From a virus: a stretch of DNA of 17,799 nt. The DNA lies in the UHGV virus genome UHGV-1847153. One strand, given 5' to 3'. Below the pieces are notes generated by a model. It made no database searches, was not told the DNA's origin, and was given only the letters and a program-made list of their open reading frames with translations. Below, one piece after another: positions 12,316-13,627 of this stretch (position 1 is the first letter of the stretch; every line of letters begins with the position of its first letter). Position numbers and translations under genes: made by a program.

Positions 12316-12666
12316 ATGAAAAAACTCATCCTGATGATTGCTTGCAGCTCTTTTGTCTTGGCGGGCGTGGCTCATGCTGATTCCCAGTGTGGGCCTTTCC
12401 ACTTGGGCACGAGCCCGACAAATGATGGATGGGCACGCATTAACGGTGCGAAGCCTGAAAGTCAGAAGGTAACGTTCCTTAAGCAAAAAGAAGACTACGA
12501 GAACATTAAGATGGAATGGCGCATGGCTACTGACCAGCCTGGAAGATGGGTTGGTCTTGAGTACATCAAGCGCAACGGCAAAGCCATTCTCAACGCACAG
12601 TGGTTGCAAGCCAGCATGGATGCGCCGCGTCAGTATGCAACATACGACTGCGTGAAGGTGAAATGA
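12316..12666 (+). CDS. Small secreted (periplasmic) protein of unknown function; cargo (moron) gene
   Basis: N-terminal Sec signal peptide MKKLILMIACSSFVLAGVAHA with AxA cleavage motif (AHA/DS). Mature protein about 95 aa with two Cys (QCGPF..., ...YDCVKVK). Lower GC than the flanking structural genes by eye. No recognisable family. Confidence 0.55.
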   Translation: MKKLILMIACSSFVLAGVAHADSQCGPFHLGTSPTNDGWARINGAKPESQKVTFLKQKEDYENIKMEWRMATDQPGRWVGLEYIKRNGKAILNAQWLQASMDAPRQYATYDCVKVK

Positions 12667-12684: not shown

Positions 12685-12738
12685 ATCAATAATCGTTGAT
12701 CTCGCGTTTTTATTATGCACTAATCTGTACATGTACAG
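12685..12738 (+). promoter_or_regulatory. Candidate promoter/operator of the TA cassette: -10-like TATTAT (12711-12716) and 14-bp perfect palindrome CTGTACATGTACAG (12725-12738) directly upstream of the antitoxin RBS
   Basis: One of only two sizeable intergenic gaps in the window (12667-12748). Palindrome read directly. -35 element is weak or unclear, so promoter placement is tentative. Confidence 0.35.
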
Positions 12739-12748
12739 AGAGGGTGCC

Positions 12749-13162
12749 ATGAAAATCATTACTTACACGCAAATGCGATCGGATTTATCTGCAACGCTGG
12801 ACTGTTTACGCTCTGGTGAAAGCGTCACAGTTACGCAGCGCGGAAAGCCCGACCTTGTCATCAGTGCAAAATCAGTTGATGAAATCGCTTCCGCAGATGA
12901 GGTAAAAACATCTGCGAAAACAATAGACACGCATCTTGCGCAATTAATTGCATCGAATTTGTCACCACAGATAACGGAGGGTGTCATGAAGCTTACTAAG
13001 CAATTGGATGCCCTTCTTCAGTCTGATGAGGCTCGCCAGACTATGATGAAGGCCACTAATGCAGCAGTTGCTTTGCAGGGCGTGTCTGAGTCATTTATCA
13101 AAGCTCTGCAACATACTCAGACCAAGCATGCGGACATCATAAAAAAACTGGAAGATAAGTAA
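12749..13162 (+). CDS. Phd/YefM-like antitoxin with an unusually long C-terminal extension (137 aa)
   Basis: RBS GAGGG 12740-12744 before ATG 12749. N-terminus (MKIITYTQMRSDLSATLDCLRSGESVTVTQRGKPDLVISAKSVDE) resembles the Phd/YefM fold pattern recalled from P1 Phd. Stop TAA overlaps the doc ATG (TAATG) at 13160-13164. Internal in-frame GGAGGG-ATG at 12976-12988. Confidence 0.6.
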   Translation: MKIITYTQMRSDLSATLDCLRSGESVTVTQRGKPDLVISAKSVDEIASADEVKTSAKTIDTHLAQLIASNLSPQITEGVMKLTKQLDALLQSDEARQTMMKATNAAVALQGVSESFIKALQHTQTKHADIIKKLEDK

Positions 13163-13569
13163 TGACTGAGATTACATTCCTTTCGGTAGATGAGGTCATC
13201 GCTATTCAGAAGAGCACATTGCCAAATAGCGGACAACCAGACCGGGGAAAACTCGAAGGTGCCCTCAATCGCGTCGATAACTTACGCATGTATGAAGGAT
13301 GTGAGGATTTATTTAAATTTGCAGCTATGTACATGGTTGCGATAGCGAAGTCTCACGCTTTTAATGACGCCAATAAGCGAACGGCTTTCCAGGCCGCCAG
13401 CGTGTTTTTGCTTTTGAATGGCTATGAACTGAATACCTCAATGGAGTTAGTCAAGCTGACCATCTTTGCTGCTACGGGAGAGGCCGACTGCGATAACACT
13501 GCTTTGGCGCTTAAACTTTTGTCAGATTATAAGAATGAGCTGCTGGCAGATACGATAACTGGCTACTGA
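13162..13569 (+). CDS. doc: Doc (death-on-curing) family toxin, Fic fold
   Basis: Intact Doc signature HxFxDANKR (SHAFNDANKRTAF, codons 13354-13380). Overall pattern closely resembles P1 Doc as recalled (DLF..A.Y.VA.A..H.FNDANKRTA....FL..NG...........L...ATGE). 135 aa. Translationally coupled to the upstream antitoxin. Confidence 0.8.
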   Translation: MTEITFLSVDEVIAIQKSTLPNSGQPDRGKLEGALNRVDNLRMYEGCEDLFKFAAMYMVAIAKSHAFNDANKRTAFQAASVFLLLNGYELNTSMELVKLTIFAATGEADCDNTALALKLLSDYKNELLADTITGY

Positions 13570-13592
13570 TAGCAAAAAGTAAATTGTACACA

Positions 13593-13617
13593 ACCCGCCG
13601 CCGAGCGGGTTTTTTTA
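13593..13617 (+). terminator. Rho-independent terminator after doc: stem ACCCGC / GCGGGT with 6-nt loop, followed by T7
   Basis: Stem 13593-13598 pairs with 13605-13610; T-run 13610-13616. Lies 24 nt after the doc stop and 11 nt before the spike gene ATG. Confidence 0.6.
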
Positions 13618-13627
13618 TGGAGTTTTT

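Follow-up and report, generated by a model that had tools for sequence, protein, structure and literature searches.

Can a single gene of the Phd/YefM antitoxin family specify two antitoxins, with the smaller nested in the frame of the larger? This question is raised by a toxin-antitoxin (TA) cassette in the virus genome UHGV-1847153, which we analyzed as one stretch of 17,799 nucleotides (hereafter the window). In this stretch an open reading frame (ORF) at 12749..13162, stop included, specifies an antitoxin of 137 amino acids (aa; 14.9 kDa) directly ahead of a doc toxin gene; all elements of the cassette described below lie on the plus strand. An earlier note, made from the letters of the window, had drawn attention to the length of the antitoxin and to an internal Shine-Dalgarno (SD)-like sequence followed by an in-frame ATG, and had offered two interpretations, namely a fused or novel toxin-neutralizing domain, or two nested products of one gene. 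The 137-aa ORF was reproduced in our analysis, and RefSeq/PGAP place its start at the same position (WP_001515093.1, 'type II toxin-antitoxin system Phd/YefM family antitoxin'). As the protein is already annotated in this manner its length alone is not new; the novelty here lies in comparative evidence for a conserved internal initiation site, which lends support to the second of the two interpretations.

The internal site comprises GGAGGG (12976..12981, codons 76-78), four nucleotides (nt; TGTC) and an in-frame ATG at 12986, exactly as first described, and the nested frame that begins there (12986..13162, residues 80-137) is predicted to give the previously quoted 58-aa peptide, with a mass of 6.5 kDa and an isoelectric point of ~9.2. 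Among the 99 internal in-frame ATGs of the 24 genes in the window, this is the only one to have GGAGG 3-9 nt upstream. The pentamer itself occurs 12 times on the two strands of the window, as against 27.8 +/- 5.4 times in shuffled sequence, with three occurrences in the sense orientation and nine in the antisense; one of the three sense-strand copies is the real SD of gene 14368. The low sense-strand count fits avoidance of SD-like sequence inside genes, and, taken with the conservation described below, these counts mark the site as more than a chance occurrence. A search for an internal promoter that might produce a separate short transcript found no sigma-70-like element, the best candidate by eye being one that would start downstream of the SD, and a search for frameshift signals found no slippery site after the SD. 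An antisense ORF at 12763-12987 was rejected, as it relies on a non-conserved GTC codon for its start.

Conservation of the site is apparent at the level of nucleotides. We aligned the codons of 12-13 homologues with 45-100% aa identity, whose synonymous sites are well diverged and not saturated, as indicated by a median of 50% identical codons at identical residues and a mean third-position entropy of ~1.2 bits. Codon 76 specifies T, R, K, M or S in these sequences, yet always ends in G (ACG, CGG, AAG, ATG or TCG), and a further locus outside the 13-sequence alignment (L046) has GCG, for alanine, at this position. Glu77 is always encoded by GAG, with the codons of the adjacent Gly78 and Val79, and of Ser72, varying freely. 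Across 13 homologues the longest invariant nucleotide run in the 411-nt gene is TGGAAGA, close to the doc start, followed by GGAGGG and then by ATGAA of the main start. All remaining invariant runs are of 3 nt or less, so the nucleotide-constant stretches of the gene correspond to its two known initiation regions and the GGAGGG site. The geometry is equally stable: the arrangement GGAGG-N5-ATG/GTG and the 58-aa length of the product are identical in 12/12 distinct members of the clade, despite upstream indels which take the total length of the antitoxin from 136 to 153 aa. Two other peculiarities of the alignment were recorded. Two members (L037 and L044) have a second GGAGG 9 nt upstream (CCG GAG GTA ATG GAG GG) and an extra in-frame ATG at codon 76, and codon 68 (12950-12952), which lies outside the SD regions, has A as its third base in 12/12 homologues though the residue varies between A, S, T and E, an unexplained constancy.

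Natural counterparts of the proposed short product are found in four species of Xenorhabdus (L010, L011, L013 and L014), in which an ORF of 56-57 aa without the Phd domain aligns to residues ~80-137 of the long antitoxin. These ORFs lie directly upstream of an intact Doc (~72% identical) and retain the TAATG overlap with it; a peptide corresponding to the proposed short isoform is hence kept alongside a live toxin. Their 5' region (CTAATCTGTACACATACAGAAAAAGAGGTG..ATG) is homologous to CTAATCTGTACATGTACAGAGAGGGTG..ATG of the window, and the operator palindrome, described below for the window, is degenerate in them (TGTACACATACA). The Xenorhabdus short antitoxins appear to derive from longer forms by in-frame deletion of the N-terminal part, with the operator in decay. 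Together, the nucleotide-level conservation of GGAGGG, the constant start geometry and these short orthologues incline us, by a small measure, to predict that initiation at 12986 is functional and yields a short isoform.

Other unusual relatives were encountered in the course of these comparisons. In Xenorhabdus the pairs of short antitoxin and Doc follow an antirepressor-like gene. The short gene is also present in several additional copies (L007, L012, L015, L028 and L029) that have no Doc downstream, and one of these orphans (L029) has a different N-terminal part of 63 aa. In a metagenome scaffold (L046, 1-600) homology to the antitoxin begins only at about residue 49, with an unrelated, receiver-domain-like fragment upstream and with intact Doc and spike genes; the scaffold is a chimera of assembly, or else a natural variant that would rely on the internal start. 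A protein cluster (P0069), which originates at the edge of a contig and in a 1.9-kb scaffold with an unrelated upstream part, contains a 58-aa protein with the same sequence as the internal frame of one clade member; it was treated as a consequence of gene calling and rejected as a sign of expression.

The nested frame contains the one part of the antitoxin which co-varies with Doc. A conserved motif, SFIKALQHTQTKHADIIKKLEDK (13088..13159, residues 114-137), forms the probable Doc-neutralizing helix, and its consensus SFxKALQHTQTKHAxIIKKLEDK is near-invariant over the last ~24 residues of the family alignment. These 24 residues track the identity of Doc from locus to locus and are the only part retained in the stand-alone Xenorhabdus antitoxins; judged from these comparisons, the element co-evolving with Doc is the C-terminal helix, which is likely to be the neutralizing one. 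A C-terminal Phd peptide comprising residues 52-73 is by itself sufficient to neutralize Doc in Salmonella in vivo, and the hot spots of the Salmonella Phd, F56, I59, M60, H63, L67 and L70, are spaced i, +3, +4, +7, +11 and +14 (PMC9207808). The invariant F116, A119, L120, T123, H127 and I130 have the same spacing. This match in register, noted by eye alone, is weak evidence, since over half of the positions in the last 24 residues are invariant.

Several observations weigh against the reading of a nested second product that neutralizes Doc, and some of them favor a less likely alternative, in which only the 137-aa protein is made and the GGAGG-ATG, unused as a start, is conserved for another reason, e.g. 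constraint on E77-G78 plus local codon preference, pausing during translation, or residual linkage. The invariant Glu-Gly pair by itself determines four of the six bases of GGAGGG, and the argument from conservation therefore rests on two free positions, for which the empirical frequency of invariant degenerate sites in the alignment gives a probability of chance invariance of roughly 0.005-0.01. Other two-fold sites are nearly invariant as well (for example, K2, Q8 and Q85, each at 12/13). The two M80V variants, which use GTG as the start, add little, since a single nucleotide change can take Met to Val only through GTG. More distant members differ: L043 and L045 are without the GGAGG, L042 and L007 have their ATG at a distance of 11 nt, and the clades with a beta-type middle have no such site, so that the internal GGAGG-N5-ATG is a clade-specific feature. 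A pairwise alignment of the C-terminus with residues 46-73 of P1 Phd is not significant, as 1787/2000 shuffles reach its score. Finally, local folding of the mRNA predicts that the stretch from SD to ATG is less accessible than typical in-gene positions in 11/11 homologues, at a mean percentile of 0.12, and that its unpaired probability is ~40-fold below that of the main start. This low predicted accessibility arises because the GGAGG region pairs with a CCUUC ~30 nt downstream: in minimum free energy (MFE) folds GGAGGGUGUC pairs with GAUGCCCUUC (13007-13016), leaving the ATG at the 5' edge of the loop, and the five core GGAGG:CCUUC pairs form in 86-100% of the sequences. The corresponding DNA, GATGCCCTTC (13007..13016), is thus a possible anti-SD arm able to pair with 12976-12985.

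The single-product alternative does less well with the remaining evidence. It does not lead one to expect a G in the third position of codon 76 across five different amino acids, when four-fold sites elsewhere in the alignment have entropies of 1.4-1.9 bits, and comparably invariant runs are seen only at the two bona fide initiation regions, with sense-strand GGAGG being otherwise avoided. A strong SD located 5 nt from an ATG normally initiates translation in Enterobacteria, and the pausing of ribosomes at SD-like sequences, one of the causes to which the conservation could be attributed, has been questioned. If the internal site were nonetheless unused, the locus would be an ordinary and already annotated Phd/Doc prophage moron.

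A second alternative, which is compatible with the others, concerns the extra ~70 residues, which could constitute a distinct functional domain, such as a second contact with Doc, a sensor, or a module recognizing a protease or a phage trigger. In favor of such a domain, the pattern LAQLIxSNxSPQ..EG..L.KQLD.LL.SDEA is moderately conserved in the 137-aa clade and predicted to be helical. The earlier note had described the extension as helical-looking, and AlphaFold2 predicts helices at 50-70, 73-91, 93-109 and 114-136, all at a low confidence (predicted local distance difference test, pLDDT, of 58-74; predicted template-modeling score, pTM, of 0.30) and with residues ~40-57 disordered (pLDDT below 50). 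The hypervariable middle (residues 41-113; 12869..13087) would on this prediction consist of a disordered linker at ~41-57 followed by three low-confidence helices, with pLDDT values of 48-68 overall and 58-68 in the segment proposed as a domain. No relative of residues 41-113 was found in Pfam, NCBIfam, PHROG or PDB, and no Pfam or NCBIfam family was matched when residues 60-137 or the C-terminal 58 aa were searched alone. The C-terminal search matched just 10 clusters among 1.84 billion representatives, all of them in the same narrow family.

The comparative picture also argues against a distinct domain. In the family alignment (128-157 aa, Enterobacterales) the N-terminus and the C-terminal motif are near-invariant and the middle is variable. 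The wider set of loci, to which a scan of metagenomes contributed 6, has antitoxins of 94-157 aa which share both ends and have unrelated middles, some of them beta-type in appearance. Relative to the window, identity over residues 41-113 falls to 4-20% at other loci, as against 59-78% for Doc and 58-79% for the last 24 residues. Since the middles are unrelated while Doc and both ends remain alike, the extension is best regarded as a replaceable spacer and not as a conserved new domain; the suggestion of a fused or novel neutralizing domain did not survive in the form in which it was made, as the conserved, Doc-tracking part is confined to the last ~24 residues. The segment is, moreover, deleted both in the 56-57-aa Xenorhabdus forms and in the 94-aa antitoxin of L027, which lacks the middle. 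A distinct domain is unlikely. In one group of loci (L006, L008 and L022-L026, from Enterobacter mori, Lelliottia and viral contigs), with antitoxins of 106-122 aa and shared ends, the beta-looking middle (e.g. KYTIQVSKTPSGDTCYVTKKPNGEVVTSIYK) could represent the insertion of a small domain whose function is unknown.

The last alternative, that GGAGG is kept as an arm of a hairpin (12976-12985 with 13007-16) which controls mRNA stability or the ratio of antitoxin to toxin translation and has no role in starting translation, is very improbable: the MFE folds of most homologues do pair GGAGG(G) with CCUUC or CCUCC ~30 nt downstream, the Leu89 codon is CTY and the third base of codon 88 a pyrimidine in every case, but no pair shows a compensatory change, shuffles reach the observed pairing and covariation scores in 453/500 and 443/500 cases, a 3' arm shifted by +3 pairs almost as well, and the consensus energy is only -4.3 kcal/mol. 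The hairpin is thus a possible structure in these folding models, unsupported as a selected one, and it explains the conservation of GGAGG no better than does a role as an SD. Nor is it exclusive of internal initiation, because a hairpin that masks the SD is equally compatible with regulated use of the site. Were it to form, internal initiation would be either weak or dependent on ribosomes translating the long form.

We return therefore to the proposal of two nested antitoxins, which can be given the form of a tentative mechanism. By analogy with the P1 and Salmonella systems, the P1-Phd-like N-terminal domain would dimerize and repress the operon at the palindrome upstream of the gene; the long, fast-evolving and largely disordered or helical spacer would separate it from the C-terminal helix (114-137), and the latter would bind the Phd groove of the Doc kinase and inhibit it, as does Phd 52-73. 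The GGAGG, the 5-nt spacing and the ATG at codon 80, which their conservation suggests to be selectively maintained, would allow ribosomes to start internally as well. The resulting 58-aa antitoxin would neutralize Doc without binding DNA, so that one gene would supply both a repressor-antitoxin and an antitoxin-only species. The short peptide would buffer Doc without adding to repression, and it may compete with the long form for Doc. We regard it as an evenly balanced matter whether this complete scheme holds, in which one antitoxin gene gives two isoforms by alternative initiation, a 137-aa repressor-antitoxin and a 58-aa antitoxin-only peptide sharing the Doc-binding helix, and in which their ratio tunes free Doc and repression independently of each other; a hairpin masking the SD until translation of the long form opens it may set this ratio.

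Type II antitoxins are usually seen as single proteins joining repression and neutralization, the coupling of which (conditional cooperativity) sets the release of the toxin. If the proposal is true, a nested neutralizer without a DNA-binding domain would uncouple these two functions inside a single gene and give a textbook TA family a new layer of regulation. The modularity of the family, with conserved ends, a replaceable middle and natural deletions that keep the toxin-binding helix, also helps define minimal inhibitors of Doc.

The affiliation of the long antitoxin is most evident in its N-terminal region, where residues 1-40 (12749..12868) form a Phd/YefM-type dimerization and DNA-binding domain. 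Pfam PF02604 covers residues 1-38 with 28.5 bits against a cut-off of 29.8, and TIGR01552 scores 20.2 against 20.8, both falling just short of the threshold, as the match extends over only about half of either model; precomputed Pfam assignments and NCBI naming place the protein in the Phd/YefM family despite these scores. BLASTP aligns residues 1-45 to P1 Phd (36% identity, E 8e-9), and a profile of the family finds P1 Phd (3hry) in PDB at 5e-5 over residues 1-52. The statement that Phd likeness is confined to the first ~45 residues is thus well supported. AlphaFold2, run on an alignment of 26 sequences, gives residues 1-39 a confident Phd-like fold (pLDDT ~86, order E-H-H-E-E), for which the best PDB match in Foldseek is the N-terminal domain of P1 Phd (4zlx_A; TM 0.82, rmsd 2.3). 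A match of the whole protein to a known single-domain antitoxin family, which would have spoken against a composite architecture, was sought in PDB by profile and fold searches, and no structure or profile there covers all 137 aa (TMq <=0.30). The family ranges from 94 to 157 aa in length, versus 73 aa for the P1 and Salmonella Phd and 82-92 aa for solved YefM/Phd chains. Membership in Phd/YefM holds for the N-terminal domain, gene order and toxin partner, and fails on compact length; likewise, the view that this antitoxin is atypical for a Doc partner is right relative to P1 and not within the present Doc clade, where 94-157 aa is the rule. The identical protein occurs on 506 contigs across Enterobacteriaceae under the NCBI name Phd/YefM family antitoxin. 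Searches of PHROGs and PADLOC with the antitoxin gave no matches, and neither did tblastn against the genomes of isolated phages, the long antitoxin being found in prophage and metagenome-derived sequence.

Taken as a whole, the locus is a type II TA cassette of the Phd/Doc type, and it forms a moron within the baseplate module of a prophage of enterobacteria. The partner gene, at 13162..13569 (135 aa), was correctly taken for doc in the earlier note: it scores 81.3 bits against the TIGR01550 cut-off of 38.65 (E 6e-23), also matches PF02661 (Fic) and phrog_577, aligns to P1 Doc (3k33) at E 7e-20, and has the Doc-type motif HxFx(D/N)(A/G)NKR in the form HAFNDANKR. By family score and motif it is clearly a Doc toxin, with a predicted kinase activity. 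Upstream of the antitoxin gene there is a perfect 16-bp palindrome, TCTGTACATGTACAGA (12724..12739), an inverted repeat with 100% complementarity lying directly 5' of GAGGG (12740..12744), which reads as the SD of the main start 4 nt before the ATG at 12749. The region of the palindrome is conserved in homologues, where it is visible as in-frame 'NLYMYR' or 'CTCT' translations. Because P1 phd bears GTGTACAC and GAGTACAC in the equivalent position, the palindrome is a plausible operator of the Phd type, and probably the one bound by the antitoxin. The antitoxin stop and doc start overlap as TAATG in the window and in all 26 loci, with the junction GAAGAYAARTRATG conserved in 26/26. The invariant TGGAAGA (13149..13155), 7-13 nt before the doc ATG, is part of the codons CTG GAA GAT (Leu134-Glu135-Asp136), and synonymous sites are frozen in this longest of the invariant runs; it is consistent with a conserved weak ribosome-binding or coupling signal for doc. 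The cassette is closed by an intrinsic-terminator-like hairpin and T-run (13592..13611), and between operator and terminator there are just two ORFs, with no gene for a separate DNA-binding regulator of the kind seen in three-component TA systems.

In the tail module of the prophage the cassette is flanked on one side by a baseplate hub gene and a conserved 116-aa ORF with a signal peptide, and on the other by a spike gene, and it is kept in this slot in related prophage loci down to ~60% antitoxin identity. Comparison of the window (12690-13620) with E. coli 730V1 (L003, 2993-3625) marks this slot, bounded by the 116-aa ORF and the spike gene, as a hotspot for cargo: E. coli prophages with other cargo have a 210-aa hypothetical protein or other small ORFs here instead of Phd/Doc. 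The 116-aa ORF (12316-12666; phrog_3443, of unknown function) has a clear N-terminal signal peptide (MKKLILMIACSSFVLAGVAHA, followed by DSQ), and its product is a secreted protein encoded within the baseplate operon. Most related prophages have a counterpart of 111-117 aa immediately ahead of the TA cassette, with Pantoea (L043) having a 232-aa ORF instead.

Among known systems the closest is Phd/Doc of bacteriophage P1 (3K33, 3HS2, 4ZLX). The two have in common an N-terminal domain of the same fold, with 36% identity to Phd 1-45, a Doc with HxFxD(A/G)NKR, the TAATG overlap of stop and start, and a GTAC-centered palindrome just 5' of the SD. They differ in that the present antitoxin has 137 aa against 73, with ~70 residues inserted between the DNA-binding domain and the neutralizing helix, in that this helix is ~6 residues longer and not significantly alignable, in the conserved internal SD and ATG, and in the location of the cassette in the baseplate module of a prophage instead of on a plasmid prophage. 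The Phd/Doc system of Salmonella Typhimurium similarly has a canonical 73-aa antitoxin, and it shares the spacing of its hot spots, by inspection, with the invariant residues described here (PMC9207808). In the literature we found no description of this antitoxin protein, nor of a nested isoform or an internal start within the gene of a type II antitoxin. The nearest precedent for a nested antitoxin is RpnL/RpnS, a 'genes within genes' TA system whose antitoxin is a small C-terminal protein made by separate translation from within a longer ORF (PMC10327210). In RpnL/RpnS that longer ORF is the toxin gene, and the nested protein inhibits the full-length toxin, whereas here the nested product is predicted to lie inside the antitoxin gene and to share the neutralizing helix with the long form. 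If the prediction is true, the present locus would add to the known examples of 'genes within genes' in conflict systems borne by phages. In three-component type II systems, such as paaR2-paaA2-parE2 and omega-epsilon-zeta, one species represses and another, small species only neutralizes, the two being products of separate genes. Here, in contrast, both species would arise from a single ORF by alternative initiation, and a two-gene Phd/Doc cassette would in this manner act like a three-component TA system.

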